A DNA stretch of 40,750 nt, taken from assembly GCA_011390535.1 (NCBI GenBank), contig JAABSF010000001.1, positions 1-40,750 of the forward strand, given 5' to 3'. Both the position numbers and the translations under genes were made by a program. The DNA is from Deltaproteobacteria bacterium (GTDB taxonomy: Bacteria > Myxococcota_A > Polyangia > HGW-17 > SLPX01). A model generated the notes under the pieces. The model saw nothing but the letters and a program-made list of their open reading frames with translations, was not told the origin of the DNA and ran no database searches. Below are positions 2,128 to 25,681 of this stretch, one piece after another (within the stretch, counting starts at the first letter, position 1; each line of letters begins with the position of its first letter).

Positions 2128-5100
2128 ATGGCGACTTTGATCCAAAAGAATTTTCGTGTGCGGAAGACCTTCGGCAAGATCGAAAGCAGTATAGATCTTC
2201 CAAACTTAATCGAGATACAGAAACGGTCTTATGGGAAATTCCTTCAAACGGATATTCCTGTTGAAGATCGTGAAGATACAGGGCTACAAGCGGTTTTTAA
2301 GAGTGTTTTTCCAATTCAGGATTACACGGGTACATCTTCCTTGGAGTTTGTCTCATATAGTCTAGGTATTCCGAAATACGATGTAAACGAATGTCGACAA
2401 AGAGGTATGAACTTTGCCGCTCCCATCAAGGTGTTAATTCGTTTACTCATTTGGGATACAAATGAAGATTCAGGGGCACGATCTATAAGGGATGTCAAAG
2501 AGCAAGAGGTCTATTTTGGAGAGATCCCTCTGATGACTGAAAACGGGACATTTATTATAAATGGAACCGAGAGAGTAGTAGTCAGTCAGCTTCACCGAAG
2601 CCCCGGAGTGTTCTTTGACCATGACAAAGGAAAAACTCACTCGTCAGGTAAACTTCTGTATTCCGCAAGAGTAATACCTTACCGCGGGAGTTGGTTGGAT
2701 TTTGAATTTGATCCGAAAGACCGTCTCCATGTTCGAATCGACAGGAGGAGGAAGCTTTTTGCAACGGTCTTATTACGGGCTCTTGGATTTACAACCCAAG
2801 AACTACTGGACTACTTCTACGAAAAGGAAACTATTTATCTCGACTCTGGGAAGAAATGTCACAAGAGCCTAGAGTTTGACCTCTTGGCCGGGCAGAGGGC
2901 TACCCGCGATATCCGTCATCCGGATACACGAGAGATCATTGTTAAAAAGAACAGAAAGTTTTCTCATGGTGCCATCAAGCGGTTAAAGGCGGCCAAAGTT
3001 AAGAGTGTCCCCGTAGATCCAAAAGATTTGGTCGGCAAAGTTTGTGCTGAAGATATTGTTGATGAAGAGACCGGTGAGGTGTTGGTTAGGTGTAACGAAG
3101 AAATCACTGAAGCCAAGATGGAAGAGATGAGGTTGTACGGTGTCAAGAGTTTTAAGATTCTCTTTATCGATGGTCTAAATGTCGGCTCGTTTTTAAGAGA
3201 CACTCTTAATGACGACAAGGCCACCACTACGGAAGAAGCACTAATAGAGATCTATAGAAGGCTTCGACCAGGTGATCCACCTACACTTGAAGCGGCTAAT
3301 ACCTTTTTTGAGAATTTGTTTTTCAACCCTGACCGGTATGACTTGTCTCGTGTCGGAAGGCTGAAAATGAATTACAAATTCAAGTTAGATGAACCTCTGG
3401 ATAATACGATCCTTACAAAGCGCGATATTTTGGAGACAGTTAAGTATCTCATAGAGTTGAGAAGTGATCGTGGTTCTATTGACGATATTGATCACCTTGG
3501 AAATAGACGAGTAAGAGCTGTTGGTGAGCTTTTAGAGAATCAGTATCGTATCGGTTTGGTAAGAATGGAGAGGGCGATCAGGGAACGAATGAGCATGTCT
3601 CAGGAGATAGAGACTCTCATGCCTCAGGATTTGATCAACGCAAAGCCTGTCTCCGCTGTTGTAAAAGAATATTTTGGATCTTCGCAATTGAGTCAATTTA
3701 TGGACCAGACAAATCCACTGTCTGAGGTTACCCATAAAAGAAGACTCTCAGCACTTGGTCCTGGAGGTTTGGCACGGGAACGTGCCGGGTTTGAAGTAAG
3801 AGATGTGCACGCAACGCACTATGGTCGAATATGTCCAATCGAGACACCTGAGGGACCGAACATTGGCCTGATAGCATCTCTTTCTACCTATGCACGAGTG
3901 AATGAGTTTGGTTTTATCGAGACTCCATATCGCAAAGTCGAAAAAGGTCAGGTTACGGATGATGTGCGTTTCTACAGCGCACTAGAAGAAGAAGGCCATT
4001 ACATAGCTCAGGCTACAACAGAGCTGGATAAAAATGGTAGAATCAAAGAAGAAAATGTTTCCGCTCGTTATTATGGTGACTTTATAATCGTTCCTGCGGA
4101 ACAGATTTCATTGATGGATGTTTCCCCAAGTCAGCTGGTTTCTGTCGCTGCTTCTTTGGTTCCTTTCCTTGAAAACGATGACGCGAACCGTGCGTTAATG
4201 GGCTCCAATATGCAACGGCAGGCTGTTCCCCTTGTTTATACAAGAGCTCCCTTGATTGGAACCGGCATGGAAAAGGTTGTTGCCCGGGACTCCGGTGTTA
4301 CGGTAGTAGCTAAAAGAGACGGTGTGGTGGAATCTGTCAGCGCCGGTCGCATTGTAGTCAAACCTGATGAAGCAACAGAAGGACCCGATGCGTTTTCTGC
4401 AAAACCGGATATCTATGAGTTGGTGAAGTTTCAACGGAGCAATCAAAATACCTGCATCAATCAGAAGCCTATTGTGATAAAAAATGATCGCATAAACAAG
4501 GGTGATGTTATCGCAGATGGCCCTGCGACTGATTCAGGAGAGCTTGCCTTAGGACAGAATGTGTTGGTGGCTTTTATGCCTTGGGGTGGATACAACTTCG
4601 AAGATTCGATTTTGGTTTCAGAGCGGTTGGTTAAAGAGGAAGTGTTTACTTCGATACACATAGAAGAGTTTGAATGTATAGCTAGAGACACCAAGCTCGG
4701 CAAAGAAGAAGTCACTAGAGATATTCCCAATGTTGGTGAAGAGGCGCTCAAAGATTTAGATGAAAGCGGGATCGTCAGGGTAGGTGCCGAGGTGGAGAGC
4801 GGGGACCTTTTGGTGGGAAAGATTACTCCGAAGGGAGAGACGCAGCTCAGTCCCGAAGAGAAATTACTTAGAGCGATTTTTGGAGAAAAAGCCGGTGATG
4901 TTCGAGACACATCTCTAAAGGTGCCGCCGGGAGTACAAGGGATAGTAATCAACGCAAAAGTTTTTACCCGTAAAGGCACTGAGCGAGACGAGAGAGCCAA
5001 AGACATCGAAGATCAGGAGAGAGAGAAGCTGCTCACCGACGAAAGGGATGAGAGGAAAATTGTAGCCCAGAGCTATTATGCGAGAATGCGAAAACTTTTG

Positions 5101-6303
5101 TTGGGTAGAACTACAGCGGCTAAGCTGGTGGATGACAAAGGAAAGGTCCTCTGTGGCAAGAATAAAAGAATCGATAGCAACACCCTGGAAACAGTTCCTT
5201 CGCGTTACTGGAGAGAGTTTCAGTTGGAGGGTACAGGCCAAGTAGAAGAAAAAATCGAACAATTGGCAACCCGCATGGAAGAGGATCTAAAAGATGTAGA
5301 GATTTTCTACCAAGAAAAAATCGAAAAACTTTCTAAGGGAGATGAGCTTCCTCCTGGTGTTATCAAAATGGTCAAAGTATATGTGGCCATAAAAAGAAAA
5401 CTGTCGGTTGGCGATAAAATGGCAGGTCGTCACGGGAATAAAGGGGTAATCAGCCGGATTTTGCCCGAAGAGGATATGCCTTATTTGGAAGATGGAACCC
5501 CTATGGATATTGTGTTGAATCCTTTGGGTGTTCCTTCCCGAATGAACGTCGGTCAAATTTTGGAGACTCACCTTGGATGGGCAGCTCTTGAGCTGGGTCG
5601 TCAGATAGACGCTTATTTGGAGACCCACTGGAATTCAGAGGTTTTGAGAGAGCAATTGAAGAAAATGTATCCAACAGAGAGAGCCCACAAGTTTTTGGAT
5701 CGTTTAGATGAAGAAGATGTAGGAAGGTTCGCTGTTAAGCTGACAAGAGGAATGCATTTGGCGACACCTGTTTTTGACGGTGCATGTGAAGAAGAGACAA
5801 AAGAAGCATTGAAAATGGCCGGCCTACCATTGAACGGCAAAGCGGTTTTGTTTGATGGAAGAACCGGAGAGGCCTTTGATCATGATGTTACGGTGGGCAT
5901 CATGTATATGTTGAAATTGCATCATCTGGTGGACGATAAAATACATGCTAGGTCTATAGGCCCGTATTCATTAGTTACTCAGCAACCCCTCGGTGGAAAA
6001 GCACAATTCGGGGGTCAACGCTTGGGAGAGATGGAGGTCTGGGCCATGGAGGCATACGGTGCTGCGTATGCGTTGCAAGAGTTCTTGACCGTTAAGTCAG
6101 ACGATGTATCCGGCAGAACTCGCATGTATGAGTCCATAGTTAAAGGTGACCATTCAATTGAGGCAGGATTGCCGGAATCGTTCAATGTTTTAATGCGTGA
6201 GCTGCAGAGTTTGTGTTTAAATATTGAACTGTTGGAAACATCTGAGGGTGTGCCTTCGGCAGTTGTTGGAGAACAAGCCACCGGCCCCGGCTTTGTTATA
6301 TGA
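2128..6303 (+). CDS. rpoB: DNA-directed RNA polymerase subunit beta
   Basis: 1391-aa ORF with conserved beta-subunit blocks: ...[30 protein letters not shown]..., ...NMQRQAVPL..., ...[19 protein letters not shown]..., ...[45 protein letters not shown]... Confidence 0.99.
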
Positions 6304-10718: not shown

Positions 10719-11558
10719 TCAACCTGACAGGATTTCTTTAAGCTCTTCGTTTGTGCATAGCTCTTTTTCCACCAGAAAACCTAAAAGTCTTCTCAAAATT
10801 ATCTCATCTCGTTCAATCAAATCCTCTAGGGTTTCAACTCTGGTCTCTATCATTTTGGTTTCTTCTCTGGCGGAGATGAGCTGAGCTTTGAAATCCGTTA
10901 GTTTTCTCTCAATGGATGAGACAGGAGGGTTCTCGCTGGATATGCTGGAAGGCGATCTTGAGACTCTTTCTTTATCTTCAGAAGTTTTTTTGTTTTCCAA
11001 GTAATCGGATGTAATAGTTGTACTTGTCTCAAAATCTTCAGTCGTTAACTCTCTGCCGTCTAAATGAAGTGATGGAGAAATACTGTGCCTGCTACGCGCA
11101 GAGTCTTTCGCTCTCCTCTTCAAGGGAACTCCAAAATACTTTCGCAGCAATCTGTTCAGTGTGCTGTATGTCGTGAAATTGGAACGTATGTTTGATTTGG
11201 TTAATACTCTCAAGTTATCAAGCGTATCTAAATTCAGCGGCTCAACCATAGCTACATCTAAGAAGTTCCCCACAGTTTCTTTGTTGAAAGGAATCAGTTT
11301 GTGGGTTTGGCAAAAAGACAAAGGAACCATATCCAAGACATCTTTTGGTATTTCCCGGTCCTCCAACTCAGCAACGGGGATATGGAGTTGACGACTTAAT
11401 ACAAACACCAAATCAAGTTCTTTGACCAACCCCAGCTCTACCATTATCTGACCTAAGGCTCCACCCCACTGCGCCTGCTCTTTAAGAGCTAGTTGAAGAT
11501 CATCTTCATCAATCAATCCACCATCCACCAAAAGCTCGCCGATTTTTTTTCTTCCCAT
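10719..11558 (-). CDS. Stand-alone GspE-N/MshEN-type domain protein with a Ser-rich linker and a C-terminal coiled-coil tail; candidate c-di-GMP receptor
   Basis: The N-terminal ~140 aa resemble the type II secretion/T4P ATPase N-terminal (T2SSE_N) domain, but no ATPase domain follows. I place the start at the ATG at 11558 (M12 of the tracked ORF), because AAGGAGGA lies 7 nt upstream. The longest ORF runs to 11591. Confidence 0.7.
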   Translation of the reverse strand: MGRKKIGELLVDGGLIDEDDLQLALKEQAQWGGALGQIMVELGLVKELDLVFVLSRQLHIPVAELEDREIPKDVLDMVPLSFCQTHKLIPFNKETVGNFLDVAMVEPLNLDTLDNLRVLTKSNIRSNFTTYSTLNRLLRKYFGVPLKRRAKDSARSRHSISPSLHLDGRELTTEDFETSTTITSDYLENKKTSEDKERVSRSPSSISSENPPVSSIERKLTDFKAQLISAREETKMIETRVETLEDLIERDEIILRRLLGFLVEKELCTNEELKEILSG

Positions 11559-11614
11559 AGACCCTTTCCTCCTTACTGAAGGATACGACAAAAATCAAAG
11601 TCACCGCTTTAACC

Positions 11615-11734: not shown

Positions 11735-13927
11735 TCATTTCGGAGTGTCTTTTTTTTCTTCCAAAAATTTCCGAATATTTTTTCTCGCACGGTGTAAACG
11801 TGATTTAACCGCAGGTACCGAAAGATCTAAAAAGTGGGCGGTCTCTTCAGATGTCATTTCCTTCCCATCTCGCAGCAAGAGAACCGCGCGATCGGTTTCG
11901 TTTAGACCTCTCAACGCTTTTTGAACGTCCAGGAGGATTTCTCGACGCAAAACATCTCTCTCCGCATCCGGCGCGTTGGATATTGCTTTGGATTGCTTGC
12001 TTGAAAGATCATTAATAGACACGTGTCTGTTTGGATCATTTCGAGCGCCTCTTTTGTTACCCTGAAATCCATCTAAATACTTTGTCGCGGCTTCATATGC
12101 GTCTTGCACAACGTCATGGGCGTCTTGTTGGTGTTTGCAGTAACGGCGAGCGAAGTGCAGCAGACTGTTTTCAAAACAATGCACGATTTCGTTCAATACA
12201 TCTGTATCTCCACTAGCGGCGCGATGAGTCAAATCGTCAGGGCTGCAAGGTTTTTCGGTGACCTCTAAATTTTTTTTTTTTGACAATAAAGAAGGCAAAT
12301 AGTCTGACGGCGGTTCTATTCCCATTAATTCGAAAGCGGTTGCCGCTATATTGCCGAGACCTTTGTTTTTAATGGAATCATTTAAAGTAAGGTCCGGATT
12401 ATTTGGAGCGTAAAGGATTAAAAACACTGGGTTTAACGTGTGTGAGGTTTTGGGAGAAGGCGCGCCTGATGAGTCTCTCTTTATCTCGCCTGTTTTGCTG
12501 TCTTTCATGAACATTTCGTCAGCATTTCCATGATCCGCGGTTATTAAGGCGCAACCATTGAGCGAGGAAACCGCGGATAAAATCTTTTCTAAACAGAGAT
12601 CTACTGATTCAACCGCGATTCTTGTAGATCTAAGGTTGCCCGTATGACCTACCATGTCTCCGTTTGCATAATTTAGTCTTGCAAAATGAGGCTTCTTTTC
12701 TTTCAACGCTTGGATGAACTCATCGGTTACCTCCCCGGCCTTCATCCAGGGCCGCTCCTCAAAAGGCAAACGGTCCGACTCAACTTCTATATAAGTTTCC
12801 AGATCTTCATCAAAAGCCTCGCTGTGATTACCATTCCAGAAATAGGTTACATGACCGAATTTTTGTGTCTCTGCACAAGCCACTTGACGATATTTGTTTT
12901 TAGAGAGGTATTCTCCCATGGTATGAGAAAAACGTGGAGGTGGGAGGAGGTAGTTCTTGGGAATGCCCAGATCCCCATCGTAACGAATCATACCTGCATA
13001 GAAAACTTCGGGTACACGGACGCGGTCAAATTTGTCAAAATCTTCTTCTTCAAAAGCTCGACTAATCTCTAATGCTCGATCTCCTCGGAAGTTGAAAAAA
13101 AGCACAGCGTCGCCATCTTCTATTGTGCCTACAGGTTTTCCCTTTTCTTCAATTACAAATGAATCCAAAAATTGATCTGTTATTTTTGGGTCTTCATTTC
13201 GATACACCTCTATAGCTTCTCTTGCTGATGCGAAACGCCTGCCTTCGCCTAAGACGTGAGCTCTCCAGCCCTTTTCTACAATTGACCAATCGGATTCATA
13301 TCGATCCATGGTGACTTTCATACGCCCCCCCCCGGATGCGATACTGTAGTTCCGTCTTTCTTTTTCGTTGATTGATTTGAAGATAAGCTCAACTTTATCA
13401 ATGTATTCAAGGGCAGACTTTTCCGGCACATCACGACCATCTAGCAGGGCATGAACAAAAAGTCTCTCTATGTCTTCTTCATCGGCTCTCTTTATCAAGG
13501 CCTCTAAATGATCAATATGACTGTGAACATTGCCGTCACTGACGAGTCCGATGAGATGTAGTGACCCTTTGTTTTTGCACCGGCTGACCATCGTTTTCCA
13601 GGTTGTAGTTTTGAAAATCTTCTTGGTTTCGATGGCTTTGTTTACAAGCTTGGCACCTTGATCCAGTATTCTGCCACCCCCGAGAGCGTTGTGACCTACT
13701 TCACTGTTTCCCATATCTTTGTCGCTGGGCAAGCCTACTGCGGTTCCATGTGCCTTGATGGACAAATTTGGACGCTCTTTTAAAAGCCGGTCAATTATTG
13801 GTGTATACGCAAGAGCTACAGCATTTCCCTCGTCTTTTTTTCCAACGCCCACACCGTCTAGAATTACAACGACAACAGGACCTTGAGGTTTTTCAAAAGA
13901 CTTGGATTGTTTCAGTTTCCATTCCAC
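11735..13927 (-). CDS. gpmI: 2,3-bisphosphoglycerate-independent phosphoglycerate mutase (residues ~1-552) fused in frame to an ECF-sigma-like module (residues ~565-730)
   Basis: The start is GTG, with GGGAGA 6 nt upstream. iPGM motifs are present: VVVILDGVGVG, GNSEVGHNALGGGR, NYANGDMVGHTGN, TADHGNADEM. The C-terminal part has sigma-70 region 2-like (LLHFARRYCKHQQDAHDVVQDAYEAATKYLDGFQG) and region 4-like (LNETDRAVLLLRDGKEMTSEETAHFLDLSVPAVKSRLHRARKNIRKFL) sequence. It is a single ORF as the sequence stands. Confidence 0.8.
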   Translation of the reverse strand: MEWKLKQSKSFEKPQGPVVVVILDGVGVGKKDEGNAVALAYTPIIDRLLKERPNLSIKAHGTAVGLPSDKDMGNSEVGHNALGGGRILDQGAKLVNKAIETKKIFKTTTWKTMVSRCKNKGSLHLIGLVSDGNVHSHIDHLEALIKRADEEDIERLFVHALLDGRDVPEKSALEYIDKVELIFKSINEKERRNYSIASGGGRMKVTMDRYESDWSIVEKGWRAHVLGEGRRFASAREAIEVYRNEDPKITDQFLDSFVIEEKGKPVGTIEDGDAVLFFNFRGDRALEISRAFEEEDFDKFDRVRVPEVFYAGMIRYDGDLGIPKNYLLPPPRFSHTMGEYLSKNKYRQVACAETQKFGHVTYFWNGNHSEAFDEDLETYIEVESDRLPFEERPWMKAGEVTDEFIQALKEKKPHFARLNYANGDMVGHTGNLRSTRIAVESVDLCLEKILSAVSSLNGCALITADHGNADEMFMKDSKTGEIKRDSSGAPSPKTSHTLNPVFLILYAPNNPDLTLNDSIKNKGLGNIAATAFELMGIEPPSDYLPSLLSKKKNLEVTEKPCSPDDLTHRAASGDTDVLNEIVHCFENSLLHFARRYCKHQQDAHDVVQDAYEAATKYLDGFQGNKRGARNDPNRHVSINDLSSKQSKAISNAPDAERDVLRREILLDVQKALRGLNETDRAVLLLRDGKEMTSEETAHFLDLSVPAVKSRLHRARKNIRKFLEEKKDTPK
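12270..12281 (-). repeat. A12 homopolymer (T12 on the + strand) at the iPGM/sigma-like junction
   Basis: Counted directly: T at 12270, ten T at 12271-12280 and T at 12281. It encodes S-KKK-N (TCA AAA AAA AAA AAT). Confidence 0.95.
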
Positions 13928-14175: not shown

Positions 14176-15306
14176 GTGAAAAAAAAAATAGTGGTGGCTC
14201 CCAACGCCTACAAGGGTACCATTACTGCCATAAGAGCCGCGACGATAATGGCGAGTGCCATTCGTGATGCGATGCATGATGTTGAGGTTGTTGAAAGACC
14301 TATGGCTGATGGTGGTGATGGGACTGCGTTTGTATTAGCGGAATGTACCGGAGGAAAGTTATTTTGGGAGATTGTGCCGGATCCTTTGGGTAGACAGTGT
14401 AAGGCGGCATATGCTCAAATAGGGAAAAAAGATATCTACGCTGTGGATATGTCCTCAGCTTCCGGCTATGCTCGCTTATCACCAGATGAAAAAGATGTTT
14501 GGAGGGCTACAAGCGAAGGTGCCGGAGCTCTGTGTAGGAGCGCAATAGAAAGGGGAGCAAAAAGAATCATTTTAGGTGTTGGTGGAACAGCCTTTTTGGA
14601 CGCAGGCATCGGGTTGGCCTCAGCGATGGGAGTTAATTTTTTGGACCCTAATGGTGACACTGTATCCCCAGGAGCAGAGGGAATGTTGGAGGTATGTGAG
14701 ATAGACATGCGTGGAGTGATGGCGAGAGCTCGAGATATTGTATGGGATTTAGCGCTGGATGTGGATAATACTTTATTGGGTCCTACAGGGGCTGCTGCTG
14801 TATACGGTCCACAAAAGGGGGCCTCAGAAGGGGATGTTTGTATGCTGGAGGAAGGGCTTAAGAATATTGCCACACTTGTAGAAAAAGCAACCGGAAAGGA
14901 ACTGCGTACGCTTCAAGGGACTGGAGCCGGCGGGGGGGCACCTTTGATCATGAAGGGGCTTTTCAACGCTAGAATGCATTCCGGTGGTGAGTTGGTTGCG
15001 GAACTGGTGGGACTTGAAAAAGCCATTTTGGGAGCCGATTTGGTTTTAACAGGTGAAGGTTGCATGGATGGCCAGACTCCATTTGGCAAGGGGCCGGTTG
15101 TTGTAGCCGGCTTGGCTGAAAAGAAAGGGGTTCCTGTGGTTGCAGTTGTTGGTAAAACGGGGCCGGGTTTTGAGGCGGTTTATAAGCGTGGAATTAAAAA
15201 GGTTGTAAAGACCGGCAGGGCAGACACCATTCCCAGTAAGAGTGTGGCGGAAAGGGAGCTCTTTTTGGGAACGAAGAGAGTTCTCTCGTGGTTTAATCAG
15301 ATATGA
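14176..15306 (+). CDS. glxK: Glycerate kinase (GlxK/GarK family)
   Basis: 376-aa ORF with a GTG start and a GGGAGGA RBS. Family-typical features are the N-terminus (KIVVAPNAYKGTITA...), ...PMADGGDGT..., the ...ADLVLTGEGCMDGQT..GKGP... block and the expected length. Confidence 0.8.
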   Translation: MKKKIVVAPNAYKGTITAIRAATIMASAIRDAMHDVEVVERPMADGGDGTAFVLAECTGGKLFWEIVPDPLGRQCKAAYAQIGKKDIYAVDMSSASGYARLSPDEKDVWRATSEGAGALCRSAIERGAKRIILGVGGTAFLDAGIGLASAMGVNFLDPNGDTVSPGAEGMLEVCEIDMRGVMARARDIVWDLALDVDNTLLGPTGAAAVYGPQKGASEGDVCMLEEGLKNIATLVEKATGKELRTLQGTGAGGGAPLIMKGLFNARMHSGGELVAELVGLEKAILGADLVLTGEGCMDGQTPFGKGPVVVAGLAEKKGVPVVAVVGKTGPGFEAVYKRGIKKVVKTGRADTIPSKSVAERELFLGTKRVLSWFNQI

Positions 15307-17611: not shown

Positions 17612-18016
17612 TTAGTAGTCGGCATCAGCAAAAATCGAGCTTTCCGTGATACGTTGCTGGTTTTTCTTAATGCACTTTTTTACATGTTCGGAGAGAGATG
17701 AGGGGTTGTTTTTCAGTGAGTTGGATATATCTTCGGCAAGTTTGATTTTGACGGCGCTCTCTAAAACAGGAGGCATGGGTTTAAGAAAAGAACTGTTTTC
17801 TTTGTAGAAATACTCCAGGCCACAGGAAGCGATGACCCCGTTGTTTGGGGCTGGGTTTGTCTTATGGACCTTTTTTGCGGTTTCTTCAATCATTGCCAGT
17901 GTTTTTTCAGGTGTAACCTTGAATTTACCTTTTTTGTTTCTGCTGAGGGTGCAAGCCAAGCCGAATAAAAGGAAGGCGAGAATAGTCAGAAGCCAGGAAA
18001 GATTGCGATGTGACAT
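17612..18016 (-). CDS. Small secreted or membrane-anchored hypothetical protein (134 aa)
   Basis: The ATG at 18016 is preceded by ACAGGAGGCTATTC, a strong SD. The N-terminus MSHRNLSWLLTILAFLLFGLAC... is a signal/anchor sequence. The 119-codon extension to 18373 in the ORF track looks non-coding. Confidence 0.6.
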   Translation of the reverse strand: MSHRNLSWLLTILAFLLFGLACTLSRNKKGKFKVTPEKTLAMIEETAKKVHKTNPAPNNGVIASCGLEYFYKENSSFLKPMPPVLESAVKIKLAEDISNSLKNNPSSLSEHVKKCIKKNQQRITESSIFADADY

Positions 18017-18124
18017 GAATAGCCTCCTGTCGAAGATCAGATCTTTTCTCAAATAGAAGGGCAATTTCGGGTTGATTGGATCAGCCCTTTGCCCCTTTTT
18101 ATAGACCTTTACGGATTTTTGATG

Positions 18125-18162
18125 GGTGCCGCAGCCTATGCTCATTACCAGGCTGCGGCACC
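18125..18162. repeat. Perfect 12-bp GC-rich inverted repeat with a 14-nt spacer
   Basis: GGTGCCGCAGCC (18125-18136) and GGCTGCGGCACC (18151-18162) are exact reverse complements. No T-tract lies on either side. Confidence 0.8.
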
Positions 18163-18689
18163 GTAGCTCTAAGAATAGATCAACTTTGCAAAGTCTCCAA
18201 AAAAACAGATCAAAAAGGAAATATATGGAGATTTCAAATGGTTGAGGCGTTAGTGTTCCATTATTTGAGCAAGCGGAGTGAGGAAAAAACAGATTTTTAG
18301 GCCCTTTGGGAGATCCTTTTTGTTTTTTGACGAGATAGAGAAACAAATTCGTCAAGCTTTTGATTTGCGCCAAAATCGCCCAAGGAAATCAATACTAAGT
18401 CCGTCTGCAGTTTAAGGCCAAAAATAACACAATCTTGCAGATGGAGCTTGACGTTGTGGATCGTATGTGTAGTCCTTGTGACGGTTTGGTTGTACTATCA
18501 TGGGAAGGGGCTTGAGCTTTTGAAAAATTATTTGTAGACGGTTTTTTAGAGTTTGCTGGTTATTGGGTTTTAATGTCTATTTCGAAAACACATTCGTACT
18601 CTAATCCAATAGAAGGCAAATATTTGGAAGATGTATTATTGCAAGAGATTTTAGGAAAAGTTTACTGGGGGGGTAAGTCGAGGTGTTGG

Positions 18690-19334: not shown

Positions 19335-19410
19335 ATGCAGTTTTATTATGAGGGTGTGAGTATCGGGTAACGTCGTTCAGAGAGAGCTTTTTTTGCTATG
19401 GAGAGGTTCC

Positions 19411-22400
19411 GTGGAACGGTTTGGAAAATATGAACTTTTAGCCAAGCTGGGTCAGGGAGGGATGGCGGAGGTATATCTTGCCAGGGCCACTTTGGCTGAA
19501 GGGCTACAGAAGCTTCTGACAATTAAAAAAATTCACCCGGCTTTTTCCGAAAATCCGCATTTTGTCTCTATGTTTAAACAAGAGGCTAAGATTTCCACTG
19601 AGCTGAATCATCCGAACATTGTACAGGTGTTTGATTTTGGAAAATTAGGGACGTCCTTCTTTCTAGCCATGGAATATGTTGAAGGGATGGATCTTATGCG
19701 TCTGATAAAAAAAGGGCGCAGACGTCTTCCCATAGGTTTGGCAGCCTATATAGTCCAGCAGCTCGCTCAGGGGCTCGATTATGCGCACAAAAAAAAGGAC
19801 AGTTTTGGCTCACATCTCGGAATAGTTCATCGAGATGTCAGCCCTCAAAACATTCTTGTCTCTTTTGATGGCGCAGTAAAAATAACGGATTTCGGTATAG
19901 CCAAGGCTCGCTCACATGAAGAGGAAAAAGGGGTCGTAAAAGGAAAGTTCCATTATATGGCTCCAGAACAAGCGCTTGGGCAAGAGGTAGACGCTCGAGC
20001 CGATATTTTTTCTACTGGGGTGGTTCTTTATGAGTTGGTTTGCGGAAGGACATTTTTTGCAGATGTAAAAGGTTCGAAGGTATTGGATGCCATCCGTAGC
20101 AAAGAAATTCCCTCACCGACAGAATTTCGTGAAGATATTCCCGATGGTTTGGTGGATATCATCATGCGGGCTGTAGCGAGGAATCCTGAGCAGCGATTTG
20201 GAACAGGCCGAGAGATGCAGACGGCATTGGTGCGGTTTCTTTATGCTCTTCATGGAGAGACTCAGGAGATCTATGATGCTGAAGCTTTGGCGGAGTTTTT
20301 GAGTGAGGAAATACCAGAAAAAGATAAAGTCAGCGCCGAGGCGCTTATTCGTTCATATGGTAGCGTTTCTAAACCTTCATCAATAGCTACACAAGCGTCT
20401 TTGGAAATCGGGGTGCAAGGAGATGTCCTCACCGACACAAAGTTGGTGGAGAGGAAAAAAATTGTTGTAATATCGGGAAGGTTTGAAGGTTGGGAGTCTT
20501 TTGCAGCCGAGGTAGGGAAAGGAAAGGCAAACAGGTTTCTTAAGGAATTGAAAAGAAATGCTGAAGATGTAGCTTATAAACTGGATGCTCGGATTAAGAG
20601 CTTTAGTGAGAGCGGGGTAAGTTTTGTTCTGGGTGTTCCCATTTCAGGAGAAAACGATTCTTCTAGAGGTATCAGGTTAGCCGGTACATTGGTGGAGTCT
20701 TGGGAGCAAGCTATCCATGATGCTTCGCGTAGGCTTGCAATTCGGTTTGGGCTGGCAAGAGGGCAGGCAGAAGTAAAGAGAGGGCATGCTGTTGGCTTTG
20801 AGTACAAGCTTTTGGGCAAGGTAGCTGATCTGAGTCTACTTCTTGCCGGACATGCAGATCCTGGGGGGGTTGTGGTGGGTGGTGGCGTTAGAAACGGGGC
20901 TCGGCATGAATGGGAGTTTGTGGAGATCGGGACCACGGATTTCAGGGGATTAGCGGCGGAAGACGGCACAGAAAGCGCAGTGGCTCGAAGCGTTAAAATG
21001 TATTCGGTCAAAGGCCCTAAACCCCGAGCGGAACGGCGAGGAAGTTTGCGCGGAAGTGATATGTTGATAGGGCGCGACCTGGAACTTCGGGGATTAAAAG
21101 ATGCATTTCGCCAAGTAGTGATGCATAGACGTTCCCGTGTTTTGGCAATTGTAGGAGAGGCGGGTGTTGGAAAGCGTAGTTTGGTGGATGGTTTTCTCGG
21201 CGATATGGAAGATGAACAGAATGTTGTTCTGAGGGCTACTGCGAAGCAGTGGGAGCAGAATTTACCTTATTCGGTGATAAGAGATCTTTGTCGGGATCTT
21301 TTCCAAGTTGAAGATTGGGCGACCAGAAAAGATCTTAAGGAGAAGATAGATTTATTTGTTGATAGAGTTTTCGATGGAGCAGGAGAAGACCTAAAAGACA
21401 TCAAAGAGGTTTTCTATTTGTTGATGGGGGCTGTTCCACCTGCACAACTTGCTCTACCAGCGGATCCTGAGCATCGTCAGAGGCGAGTCGGCAAGGCCCT
21501 TCAAAGTGTCTTAGTTCAGCTTGCGCGCCATAAACCTCTTGTCGTCGTTTTGGAAGAGTTTCATTGGGCGGATTTTCAGAGCAGACAATTGCTCAGGAAG
21601 TTCATCACAAGCCTACCCGATAGACCGATTTTGGCGATTATTACATCTAGGCCTGAAGACGATTTAAGAGAGATGTTCGGGCAAGGTTTGGTGGACCCGC
21701 TTTATCTGCAAGAATTAGGAGAAAACGAGAGCAGACAGCTTGTGTCTTTGATGTTTTTGGATCCCAAATCAGTCGAACCGTTAATCAATCAAATTCTGGC
21801 AAAGGGCGGAGGAAATCCATATTTTTTAAATGCCATATTGGAGTCACTGGTAGATCAAGGTATCTGTGAAACAAGCGATGGAGATCCGGAAGGACGGTTG
21901 GTCTGGAAGAAAAAAGATGTCACTGTAACATTTCCACCCACGGTGGAAGCTTTAGTGAGTGCAAGGTTGGATCAGCTCCCCGCAGAGGAACGATCCGTGT
22001 TGAGGAGAGCTTCTGTTTTGGGGAGATATTTTCAAGCGAAGAATCTATCGGCTTTGGTTGAGGGGGGTATAAGTAAGGCACTGGAGAGTTTGGTTTCTAG
22101 AGGACTTTTAGTTAAAGAAGAAGACGAAAGGTATCATTTTGCAAAACAAGTGATTTTGGATATTGCCCATCAAGGGCTTTCCAGCGGGGACATTAAACGG
22201 CTTCACAAAAAGGTAGCGGATTTAATGTCTGAGAGGGAAGAGAGTATAAGAGGCAGGGCTGCTTTGATTGCTTGGCATAACGAGTTAGCCGGGTATTTGA
22301 CCGAAGCGGGGAAATATTATTGGTATGCTGCTCGGGAAGCGCGCGATTTAAATGGAAATAAAGAGGCTTTTCATTTCTTGAATAAGGCGGCAAAGCTTAT

Positions 22401-23712
22401 AGATGTCGATGATAAGTCGACATTGTTTGAAGTTCACTGGAAAAGAGAAAAAATTCTTGGGGAATGGGGGAGAAGAAAACAACAAAAACAAACTATTGAA
22501 GAGCTTGAAAAAATAGCATCTATGATGCAAGAGACTTTATACACAGCTAAAGTATTAAGCCGATGGATGAATTATTTTCAAGTAGTGAGCAAACCAAAGG
22601 ATTCCCTTTCGATTTTTAACAAAGCGTGGGAGAAGGCTGAAAAATCCGGAGAGATTGATCTAAAGGCAGAGATTCTTCGTCTTAAGGCGAGAGCCTTAAA
22701 CGAGGTGGGAGAAAACACGGCTGCTCTTGAGGCTTTGAGAAAAGCTAGAAACCTATGTTCTCCTGAGGAGCAGACGACGGAGCCATGGGGCTGGGTATGG
22801 CATATCGAAGGCAATGTTTTACTTTATGTCGGAGATTATCGAAGCGCTGTTGCAGCATATACAAAGGCAAGAGAGATATATCGCCGGTTAGGACTTCGAA
22901 GACAAGAGGGTACAATCCTTAATAATATGGGATTCATTTCTTTGAATTTGGGGAGATTTGAGGAAGCCATAAAGTATCTAAAGGCTTCTTCTTCAATAGA
23001 TGTGGAGTTGGGCAACCGGGATGCTTTAGGTGTTAAGCTTTCCAATCTTGGACAAGTTTACAATAGTCTTGGGTGTTTGGACAAAGCGATGAAACACTTG
23101 TTGAAGGCTGAAGAGCTTTGTCGATCCGTTCAAGAATCGAGCTATCAAGCTGATGCTGTGATTTCAATCGGTCAAGTCCATATGAACCGAGGAGATTATA
23201 AAGCTGCTGTAGCTGAATTAAAAAGGGGTCTGCAAATAGCGATTGATGCAGATGGGCTTTACGACATTGTTCGGGCACAGATTTATCTATCCTCTGCTTT
23301 GGTTTCCGCTGGAGATTCAGCCCAAGAGGCCTATGAATTGGCGATGCAGGCCACCAAACATAGCAGAGATGCAAGGATGCCTCAGGGAGAAGTTTTTGGG
23401 CAGTCTATGGCTTCAAGAGCATTGATTTCCCTGGGACGGACCGAAGAAGCATTGGGTTTATCTGCTCAAGCAGTTGCCAGGCTCTCGACCTGTGGTCATG
23501 TAGCAGAGAGCGAAGTTGTGCTCTTGAATCATTCGATAGCTTTGATTAAAGCAGCTAGAGCCGAAGAAGCGAGGCCATATCTCGAAAAAGCTCTACAAGA
23601 GGTCAGAAAAAAGAAGGCTTCGATTACAAAAGAAGAGCACAAAAAAAGTTATTTGTCTGTGCCACCGGCCAAAAATATACTTCTTCTTTATAAAGAGCAT
23701 TTTAAGGACTAA
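19411..23712 (+). CDS. Multidomain Ser/Thr protein kinase: Hanks kinase, class III cyclase-like domain, P-loop NTPase (AAA_16/STAND-type), TPR array
   Basis: Kinase motifs: GQGGMAEVY, ..[23 protein letters not shown]. The cyclase-like segment is ...[14 protein letters not shown]...[10 protein letters not shown].... Walker A is GEAGVGKRS (21154-21180). The C-terminal ~500 aa are TPR-like. I place the start at the GTG at 19411 (GGAGAGG upstream); an alternative TTG lies at 19393. Confidence 0.85.
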
Positions 23713-24052: not shown

Positions 24053-24473
24053 GATCTTGATTTTACCCAATGGCTGAAGGATCACGTAAGGAAGACAACT
24101 AAAGGAGGACTTTTATCCGTTCGACCTTTGCTGTCTCGGCCCGATACGGGTCCAAGCAGCCTTCAAAAAAATGGTCTGGAATATTCGTCTTTTCTCTACC
24201 TATGAAGGCTCAACATTTTTCTTTCGGCGTATAATTCAACTTTGTGTGCATATTATTTGCAATTAAATCATTTCGTCAAGGGTGTATCTAGAATAGAGTC
24301 CGATTCTGTGAAGTAAGTCTATCCACTCGGCTCTGCAGCGAGATTTGGCCCCGGCCTGATAGGTTCATTTTTTGACTGAAAAAGAGAGGAATGGCGAAAG
24401 AGGGATCGGCCGGGCGGGGGAGTCTGCGCAGGGCTCGAATCAGCCGGACGTCAAAGAACTTAGCACCTTTTGG

Positions 24474-24752
24474 TTATCGACAGGGGTTCAAATCCGGGTA
24501 TTTAGTAAATGCCCAACAGCTGCGCATATTTACACAATCTGTTGCGCAGTTGGAGAGGTTTTTCTTTTCTTCGATTGTGAGGTTTATGCAAACGTCGTAA
24601 CAACGATCCAGATCAGCGGTGGGTCCACCGCATTCAAGACACTTTGCCGCTTCATCGCAGAAAGCTTTGCAGGCGTCTTTGTCGTCTGTGCAAGAAATTG
24701 TGGAGAAAAGCCCTATTGTTATAAAAAAAACCAAGAAAATTCGCCGGGTCAT
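24474..24752 (-). CDS. Small Cys-rich secreted protein (92 aa, 10 Cys), hypothetical
   Basis: MTRRIFLVFFITIGLFSTISC... is a signal sequence, followed by a Cys-rich mature part (CKAFCDEAAKCLECGG...CYDVC...CATDC...C...C). The start is the ATG at 24752. Confidence 0.55.
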   Translation of the reverse strand: MTRRIFLVFFITIGLFSTISCTDDKDACKAFCDEAAKCLECGGPTADLDRCYDVCINLTIEEKKNLSNCATDCVNMRSCWAFTKYPDLNPCR

Positions 24753-24850
24753 TCTACCAAAAAAACGAAGAGGATAATTGCTCACATTTTTGAATGTTTT
24801 ATAGTTCATTGTAATAACCACTTGACGGAGAGTAACTGTTTGCTATCTCA

Positions 24851-25681
24851 GTGCAGATGTTTGCACGGACCAAAAGAGAATACAAGAGGATCTTGGGTAT
24901 TGCGCTTGGGGGGGGGCGTGGGAAGAACACCGTTGTAACCTGTTTAGATCTTACCGGTGATAAACCCAAAGTGGTCATGGTTAGTCCCAGAGATGAAGCC
25001 GGGAGGCTTTGGTATGATAATGTCTTGTCAAATTTTGTCATGGGTTCTTCCCAGACCACCCTATTGGCTTTGGATGCGCCGTTAACGTTGCCTGCATGTG
25101 TTCGATGCAAAGAAAGAATATGCACTGGTGTGTTGGATTGTCCATACCCGGCAGTTAAGTGGTTTGTGAGAAATGCAGTTGGAAAAGAGAGCTTTCCCAG
25201 AAAGCGATTTGGGCGGAAACCAGAGTTTACTCCATATACACAAAGAGTCTGCGAGAAATTTCTGGAAAAACAATATGACATAAAAGTTAGAGAGGGGCTG
25301 GGATCCAGCATTGGGCCGATAACTGCCCGGGCTCAGCATTTGTTAAGACGTTGGTCTCCAGATTACGTGCTACATCATAACTTGTTGGAGGTGAGTCCAA
25401 AGGTAACGATTAGTTTGGCTTTTGGAAAGTCCATTGCGCTTGATTATAGGAACGGGCCGGAAACATGGGAAACAAGAGCTTTCATTTTGGAACATTTGGG
25501 GGAATGGGTTGATTTTGTGGTATGGAGAGAGATGATTCTCCAAAGCAGGAGACGTTTCAAATCCTTGATATGTGCAATTACAGCCTTTTTGTGGTTGAAG
25601 CATGGGTGGGATTATCCTGAAGGGATGTCGGAGATAGGAGAGGAAGATGGATGGATCTGGGCGCCTATGGACGGTTTGTAG
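24851..25681 (+). CDS. DUF429-like (RNase H-fold) protein with an inserted Cys cluster
   Basis: The layout ILGIALGGG...(N-terminal strand)...LLALDAPLTLP...EVSPKV...FKSLICAITAFLW resembles DUF429 family blocks. It has an extra CVRCKERICTGVLDC cluster. The call is by eye only. Confidence 0.5.
   Translation: MQMFARTKREYKRILGIALGGGRGKNTVVTCLDLTGDKPKVVMVSPRDEAGRLWYDNVLSNFVMGSSQTTLLALDAPLTLPACVRCKERICTGVLDCPYPAVKWFVRNAVGKESFPRKRFGRKPEFTPYTQRVCEKFLEKQYDIKVREGLGSSIGPITARAQHLLRRWSPDYVLHHNLLEVSPKVTISLAFGKSIALDYRNGPETWETRAFILEHLGEWVDFVVWREMILQSRRRFKSLICAITAFLWLKHGWDYPEGMSEIGEEDGWIWAPMDGL

Follow-up and report, generated by a model that had tools for sequence, protein, structure and literature searches.

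Runs of nine or more identical bases mark the length at which selection against slippage shows in many bacteria (PMC1088944). In Citrobacter rodentium, the A11 run of tssM1 gives rise to transcripts with 10–15 A and to two required protein variants (PMC4256274), and in Shigella the transcription regulator encoded by mxiE is made only after slippage on a T9 run (PMC1088944). Extracytoplasmic function (ECF) sigma factors with additional polypeptide have also been described: the extensions are C-terminal in ECF41, ECF42 and ECF238 and N-terminal in the pro-sigma BldN (ECF121), SigC (ECF36s4) and the long sigma-R isoform (ECF12), and BldN is made as a longer precursor that is then trimmed (PMC7826278). 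Here, we analyze a locus in a 40,750-nucleotide stretch of DNA from a Deltaproteobacteria bacterium (GTDB lineage Bacteria; Myxococcota_A; Polyangia; HGW-17; SLPX01), hereafter the window, which covers positions 1 to 40,750 of contig JAABSF010000001.1 in assembly GCA_011390535.1. In this locus, a single 730-codon open reading frame (ORF; 11735..13927, minus strand) runs from 2,3-bisphosphoglycerate-independent phosphoglycerate mutase (iPGM, gene gpmI) across a run of 12 A into a module resembling an ECF sigma factor. Long poly(A) tracts are also familiar from the endosymbionts Buchnera and Blochmannia, in which frameshifted genes are rescued by polymerase infidelity.

By analogy, the junction appears most like the slippage sites of tssM1, dnaX and mxiE. 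It shares with C. rodentium tssM1 and Yersinia pseudotuberculosis tssM an A11–12 run followed directly by a stop in one frame and by a long open continuation in another, together with the lack of a stimulatory RNA structure and of a Shine-Dalgarno element, and mixed A counts would be expected here as well. However, the two parts of tssM belong to one ancestral gene, whereas here two unrelated genes meet, their frame relation varies among relatives, and the case is known from sequence alone. As with Thermus thermophilus dnaX (A9) and Shigella mxiE (T9), the homopolymer would give a short and a long product; in Escherichia coli dnaX, a −1 frameshift takes place on A AAA AAG, and in the related L001 lineage an A-rich slippery run likewise has sigma in its −1 frame. 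Unlike dnaX and mxiE, the present junction has no conserved frame relation, and a search for dnaX-type stimulators (a Shine-Dalgarno element upstream, a hairpin downstream) found neither. The ORF resembles extended ECF sigmas in joining a sigma2–sigma4 core to extra polypeptide that could gate its activity. Nevertheless, the N-terminal extensions of those sigmas are short and conserved within their groups, whereas here a complete 550-aa glycolytic enzyme is attached in two of the four lineages of one clade, and the sigma core itself is damaged in the window. The endosymbiont cases likewise have a long A-tract where the frame is interrupted, and slippage could plausibly express both frames, but they belong to decaying genomes with many such tracts, whereas this contig has 45% GC and a single run longer than 10 nt.

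On balance, we lean towards a genuine and recent read-through fusion created by collapse of the gpmI–sigma spacer, as opposed to a designed enzyme–sigma protein. Ancestrally, gpmI would have been followed after 75–105 nt by sigma, which had a sigma70-type promoter to itself and a near-leaderless ATG. A single small clade would then have lost spacer, promoter and ATG alike, so that the sigma coding sequence would now abut the poly-A (Lys-Lys-Lys) tail of gpmI, about a dozen nucleotides past the tract, and would be expressed from the gpmI transcript. Single-nucleotide indels would have altered the few nucleotides between the tract and sigma, and their accumulation would explain why the frame relation differs among lineages so closely related. 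The two frames coincide in the window and in L171, its sister lineage, and there the ribosome would pass from iPGM into sigma. Faithful transcripts would then yield an iPGM of ~82 kDa with a sigma tail, and slippage on A12 by RNA polymerase, which is prone to slip on A/T runs of at least nine, would generate some A11 transcripts encoding a normal iPGM of ~61 kDa that ends SKKKI*; stand-alone iPGM is, by comparison with the known slippage systems, probably also made.

The ORF itself starts with GTG, ends with TGA and spans iPGM, linker and sigma module; a protein search found a sequence identical to its 730-aa product on record (P0114), and exact look-ups of this ORF and of rpoC in the contig index gave no entry. 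The tract comprises exactly 12 A on the minus strand (12270..12281; T12 on the plus strand), reads TCA AAA AAA AAA AAT, and codes the Lys-rich natural C-terminal tail of iPGM, S-KKK-N. Retranslation with A11 gives ...SKKKI followed by TAG, and with A13 it gives KKKKFRGHRKTLQP*, that is, 10 codons and then TGA. The enzyme is complete (residues 1–548, ending ...DYLPSLL; 12284..13927, minus strand): residues 17–542 match TIGR01307 with 428.5 bits over profile positions 2–497 of 504, above the curated equivalog cut-off of 330.65, and both Pfam iPGM_N (PF06415) and Metalloenzyme (PF01676) match, which identifies a full-length cofactor-independent phosphoglycerate mutase (GpmI). An earlier note on this DNA, made from the sequence alone, had described the in-frame 730-codon ORF, the full-length enzyme, the exact A12 joint and the A11 and A13 alternatives, which it worked out by hand; in all four respects, it was right. 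The iPGM part is 91–93% identical to those of P0113 and P0115, and pairwise ratios of nonsynonymous to synonymous differences (pN/pS) for iPGM are 0.12–0.14.

Ancestral gene order and loss of the spacer

Informative relatives were obtained through protein searches and exact-protein look-ups; scans of genome and metagenome contigs with the sigma alignment returned, among the matches listed, only distant ECF sigmas of at most 45% identity. Down to 48% sigma identity, the gene order is kept: two PEGA genes, a glycerate kinase gene on the opposite strand, gpmI, sigma, an MshEN-domain gene, rpoC and rpoB. In relatives at 48–73% identity, gpmI and sigma are two consecutive genes with a spacer of 75–105 nt between them, and in the distant lineages that carry gpmI (L163/L164, L165, L166/L167 and L172), this gene stops 2–10 codons past ...PSLL; its tail in L165 contains an A7 run and reads QKKS*. 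The spacers of L163/L164, L165 and L172 hold a conserved cTTTGAC(a/t)-N17-TATCTT element 6–9 nt 5' of the sigma ATG, and that of L166/L167 holds TTGACA-N17-TATATG with a longer leader. As read from these motifs (L162 4880–5000, L163 1770–1893, L165 4880–5000, L172 3382–3486), the outgroup sigma genes have a predicted sigma70-type promoter of their own that would give a near-leaderless mRNA. An apparent loss of sigma in L172, in which no sigma gene was listed, was rejected after tblastn found an intact sigma with spacer and promoter. In L162 (JGI 3300037504, 3770–5588), gpmI is gone, glycerate kinase directly precedes sigma, and the promoter motif lies 6 nt before the ATG. Because L162 keeps the neighborhood without gpmI, adjacency of gpmI and sigma is not obligatory.

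Four lineages at 91% iPGM identity or more, namely the window, L171, the L001 type and L170, are without the spacer, the promoter and the ATG. A scan of the 400 nt preceding sigma in three of them (the window, L001 and L170) found no promoter of this kind, and the tract lengthens from A4–A7 in the outgroups to A11–A12 in the clade. The junctions of these lineages differ in frame. In the window, A12 is followed by TTTAGAGGTCACC, gpmI has no end of its own and is read through, and sigma is fused in frame 0. The same applies to L171 (Logan SRR31660264), in which A11 is followed by TTGAGGGCATC within a 747-aa ORF (P0115). In L001, A11 precedes TCCTGAGGTCATA, gpmI ends SKKKILRS* and sigma lies in the −1 frame; L168 and L169, which together with L001 make up three assemblies from different samples, are identical to it at the junction, all with A11; the records of the L001 type are SRR14699970, ERZ27241908 and JGI 3300028822. 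In L170, A11 precedes GCTGAGATCATA, sigma lies in the +1 frame, and gpmI ends SKKKS*, which can be compared with the ancestral QKKS* of L165. The L171 linker is 3 nt shorter than that of the window and hence in frame with A11. Since this independent assembly is fused with A11 and a 3-nt-shorter linker, the fusion is not merely the consequence of an A12 call. A comparison of gpmI neighborhoods, proposed in the earlier note as a check, shows sigma to be separate, with a spacer, in distant relatives, variable in frame within the clade, and fused in L171.

Sigma is under purifying selection on every branch of the clade. Its terminal-branch pN/pS is 0.14 in the window (13 synonymous and 6 nonsynonymous changes), 0.06 in L171, 0.14 in L001 and 0.36 in L170, with a pS of ~0.29 between the window and L171. 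Sigma is accordingly a functional gene in this clade despite having neither a promoter nor an ATG to itself, and we infer that its expression must come from the gpmI message. In an unrooted sigma tree, 13 informative sites group the window with L171 against L001 and L170, and 2 sites do not.

Several observations weigh against the read-through fusion. All 109 of 109 homologs of the sigma part, recovered in a search of 5.8 billion proteins, are stand-alone proteins of 120–269 aa; the fused extension is confined to the window and L171 and is therefore not of the conserved kind known from ECF sigmas. In the two sibling lineages, gpmI ends at its own stop just past the tract, which speaks against a conserved architecture. 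With no root to the tree, two separate origins of the fused state are conceivable instead of inheritance, and two of four lineages in frame would be statistically unremarkable if frames drift randomly (one third each). The fused frame in the window depends on the tract length, which is A12 from the assembly, as against A11 in all five assemblies that represent the other three lineages. A 54-bp deletion within the sigma module of the window, described below, may reflect variation in the population or a fault of the assembly, and transcript heterogeneity and both protein products are inferred. Judged from the sequences compared, the fusion is not a conserved bifunctional protein. The slight lean of the earlier note towards a real fusion or a slippage junction is supported by the comparative data, specifically by L171, although a conserved architecture found no support.

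The poly-A junction: read-through, miscall or recoding

Long homopolymers are a known source of indel errors, and the earlier note had raised the possibility of a miscalled tract. According to this explanation, the true tract is A11, gpmI ends ...SKKKI-TAG, and sigma or its remnant is a separate gene translated from TTG 12232 by termination–reinitiation, as annotated in L001-type relatives. The five A11 assemblies of the other three lineages would fit a miscall, as would the stop codon met immediately past the tract in the A11 frame and the position of the 730-aa protein in its 90% cluster, which is represented by a 556-aa iPGM and contains no other fusion. Nevertheless, sister lineage L171 is fused without A12, its linker differs from that of the window by exactly 3 nt, and the two group together on the sigma tree. 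The three assemblies of the L001 strain are unanimous in giving A11. In a 20-kb alignment to L001, no frameshifting difference other than the tract is left uncompensated in any gene that is also called in relatives. The other 9–10-nt runs in coding DNA are all in frame: a G9 at 13325–13333 that codes GGG in iPGM, an A10 at 14179–14188 that codes MKKKI at the start of glycerate kinase, and a G9 at 24908–24916 that codes GGG in ORF 24851–25681. These runs serve as internal controls for homopolymer accuracy in the assembly. Moreover, the old ATG site of the window now reads ACC, and a separate sigma there would lose an N-terminal Cys that is kept in 25/26 homologs. Weighing these points, we consider a miscall unlikely. 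For annotation, the 730-aa "iPGM" should not be propagated as bifunctional without read-level support.

The anatomy of the junction is in keeping with a collapsed spacer. Alignments delimit a variable linker, (AA)T TTA GAG GTC ACC (12257..12269, minus strand), as the putative spacer remnant. Its ACC (12259–12257) aligns with the ancestral sigma ATG; the same codon is ATC in L171, ATA in L001 and L170, and ATG in L165. The distance from the start of the tract to GAA is 26, 23, 25 and 24 nt in the four lineages of the clade. From the tract to the old ATG site, the sequence looks non-coding, with indels and no surplus of third-position changes, and conservation restarts at GAA-AAA-CCT-TGC. These codons begin EKPCSPDD, the N-terminal segment of the sigma family (12233..12256, minus strand), which holds the Cys codon 12247–12245; the Pro-Cys codons show only synonymous differences among the four lineages.

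How sigma might be translated from such a junction is of particular interest. In the sigma frame, there is no ATG, GTG or TTG between the tract and a TTG at 12232–12230, the Leu codon of DDL-THRAASGD (12230..12232, minus strand). The earlier note had likewise named this TTG as the only start-like codon; it is indeed in frame, but that account was incomplete, because the TTG is the gene-caller start of the separate 183-aa sigma gene in L001, L168, L169 and L170, and the ancestral ATG is now ACC. No Shine-Dalgarno-like sequence is seen upstream of the TTG in a reading of the sequence, and initiation there would drop the N-terminal Cys and need reinitiation after the nearby gpmI stop. Candidate routes of sigma translation are this TTG, a near-cognate start (ATA or ATC) where the ATG used to be, and read-through or slippage from gpmI. 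No internal promoter or terminator was found on the minus strand between 11500 and 14200; a TTGCCT-N17/18-AAAAAT promoter candidate, found by hand, was dismissed because it has only 8/12 matches.

The tract could also be a selected recoding site. Under this hypothesis, the clade keeps A11/A12 for transcriptional slippage or −1 ribosomal frameshifting that sets the ratio of free iPGM to iPGM–sigma; the fusion would be the way in which sigma, including its N-terminal Cys, is now made, and the genomic frame would only shift the ratio. The junction does carry an A/T run of at least nine, with A12 in the window and A11 in the five assemblies that cover three related lineages, and it was in the clade without sigma promoter and ATG that the tract grew from A4–A7. 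Purifying selection acts on sigma in all four lineages with no canonical start upstream of the conserved Cys, and the purely synonymous variation of the Pro-Cys codons points the same way. In addition, each lineage has a stop at most two codons past the tract in one frame, with the sigma frame open, and if slippage renders the frame almost immaterial, a variable frame (0, 0, −1, +1) is what one should see. Precedents exist in tssM1 (A11), Thermus dnaX (A9) and Shigella mxiE (PMC4256274; PMC1088944).

However, chance alone could, on a rough estimate, account for a conserved tract of AAA Lys codons at 45% GC, and the 13 nt between the tract and the former ATG gain and lose bases like non-coding DNA. 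The tract is kept and sigma is constrained, with pN/pS of 0.06–0.36, yet no single frameshift direction can be programmed, given that the frame relation is not conserved; for this reason, the junction is not classed as a programmed site. A 111-nt junction fold was no better than shuffles, with z of 0.32 in the window, −0.76 in L001 and 0.99 in L170. With a slippery run present and neither this stimulatory structure nor an upstream Shine-Dalgarno-like element found, a programmed −1 ribosomal frameshift of the dnaX or IS3 type is not indicated. Reinitiation at the TTG or at the near-cognate ATA/ATC offers a simpler route, and the window sigma has lost region 2.3/2.4. Selected recoding is accordingly, in our estimation, rather unlikely. 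A stricter version, in which sigma is made throughout the clade only as a C-terminal extension of iPGM via poly-A slippage that sets the proportion of free to sigma-bearing enzyme, and in which the tethered sigma of the window has only just been disabled, we hold to be quite unlikely; if true, the output of a stress/redox (four-Cys) sigma would be coupled directly to how strongly a gene of central metabolism is expressed.

State of the sigma module

In sigma factors, the region 4 helix-turn-helix binds the −35 element, and the region 2.3/2.4 helix serves −10 recognition and DNA melting. The C-terminal 177 residues of the window ORF match TIGR02937 (sigma70-ECF) with 66.6 bits against a cut-off of 42.9. 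Region 4 is intact (residues 666–717; 11777..11932, minus strand): Sigma70_r4_2 matches over profile positions 2–53 of 54 with E 6.5e-13 in the full ORF and 7.4e-14 in the 177-aa module alone, and Sigma70_r4 matches with E 1.5e-10 and 1.4e-11, respectively. With Sigma70_r4_2 and TIGR02937, region 4 is that of an ECF (group 4) sigma-70. Region 2 is not complete: only a remnant of regions 2.1/2.2 (12062..12184, minus strand) matches Pfam Sigma70_r2, with E 3e-6 over profile positions 2–42 of 71. The profile search suggested in the earlier note thus recovered Sigma70_r2, Sigma70_r4 and the TIGR02937 ECF model, and its claim of region 2- and region 4-like sequence stands for region 4 and, by profile and alignment, for only half of region 2, whose 2.3/2.4 part is deleted.

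The missing part was located by alignment to all relatives. An in-frame deletion of 54 bp, with its junction at 12055..12056 (minus strand), removes the 18 codons ASIKTWLTKLVMSACSKK, which represent sigma region 2.3/2.4 with an invariant Trp and Cys. In the solved ECF sigma structures 6in7_B and 8z6g_B, the deleted segment aligns to the helix SAFYTWLYRIAINTAKNH, FYTWLYRIAINTAK. These 18 codons are nearly invariant across nine aligned homologs and are 100% conserved as protein in L001, L170 and L171, with synonymous differences among them; among the relatives compared, the deletion is unique to the window. A frameshift inside sigma, considered because of the odd sequence after ...LDGFQG, was rejected in favor of the clean in-frame deletion. 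The sigma gene of the relatives contains a second A-run, A9 in L001 (10224–10232) and L170 and A8 in L171, which reads TCA AAA AAA AAG, and the right edge of the window deletion lies within this run.

Judging from established sigma structure, a protein without the region 2.3/2.4 helix should neither recognize the −10 element nor fold its sigma2 bundle properly. The sigma module of the window is thus probably not a working sigma, and the tail is likely non-functional or decaying. Its loss of function would be recent, as the remainder still shows the signature of purifying selection; in the sigma2 remnant, the terminal branch of the window has 4 synonymous and 0 nonsynonymous changes. Either the deletion is itself recent, or it is a population variant, or the remnant keeps some role. 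In annotation, the sigma part should be flagged as being without region 2.3/2.4.

The state of the module also bears on whether iPGM might act as an N-terminal regulatory or sensing domain of a functional, enzyme-tethered sigma in the window and L171, which would be a new type of ECF regulation. The two sister lineages with a fused ORF are pS ~0.29 apart with an in-frame linker difference, and sigma is constrained in both terminal branches. ECF sigmas with fused regulatory extensions exist, although these are mostly C-terminal, N-terminal ones being rarer and shorter (PMC7826278). However, the window sigma has lost the −10-recognizing helix together with an invariant Cys, the sibling lineages and all other homologs are unfused, and there are two metagenomic instances only. 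Furthermore, iPGM has the same pN/pS as in unfused lineages, with no sign of co-adaptation. We therefore regard a functional tethered sigma as very improbable.

Four Cys are conserved in the sigma family over 33–65% identity, in the contexts N-terminal P-C, (H/R)C(F/Y), R(Y)C and SAC. Three of their codons are present in the window (12245–12247, 12170–12172 and 12131–12133, minus strand), and the fourth lies in the deleted segment; one family member, P0051, is missing the first two Cys together. The four-Cys pattern suggests a paired redox or metal site and, with it, a putative sensing mode independent of an anti-sigma factor.

Implications of the probable fusion and neighboring genes

If the join is real, the read-through fusion would represent a gene fusion in progress, in which the spacer collapses, a regulator loses its promoter and start, and it is captured by the gene of a housekeeping enzyme via a slippage-prone poly-A tract; the close relatives would then appear to display each intermediate frame state. 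The locus could then serve as a natural system for studying whether homopolymer slippage buffers frame changes at the birth of a fusion, whether an ECF sigma can work or be regulated while tethered to an enzyme of ~60 kDa, and how a gene under purifying selection is translated without a canonical start. The picture at the level of the clade is the most interesting and lends itself to experiment, with a promoter-less and start-less sigma behind a slippery A11–12 run, flips in frame and persisting selection.

A 290-aa MshEN-domain protein is encoded at 10719..11591 (minus strand), directly downstream of sigma in every relative whose sequence was read at this place. The neighborhood shows no classical anti-sigma gene, which makes the MshEN-domain protein a candidate partner or regulator of sigma; as suggested by this arrangement, it may be its functional partner. 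Further along, positions 19393–23712 (plus strand) encode a Ser/Thr protein kinase of 1439 aa that contains AAA_16 and TPR domains and is conserved in this neighborhood in L001, L162 and L171. Ser/Thr kinases regulate certain ECF groups (PMC7826278), and by analogy a link between this kinase and sigma is conceivable.

Two further ORFs of the window were inspected. A second homopolymer frameshift at the G9 run 24908–24916, where ORFs 24372–24938 and 24851–25681 overlap, was rejected because the first ORF has no Pfam match and is unprotein-like, and because the run codes GGG within the second. The 253-aa ORF at 17612–18373 (minus strand) is probably over-extended: relatives call a 134-aa gene, and a T3/T4 difference relative to L001 falls in the extension, around 18091.

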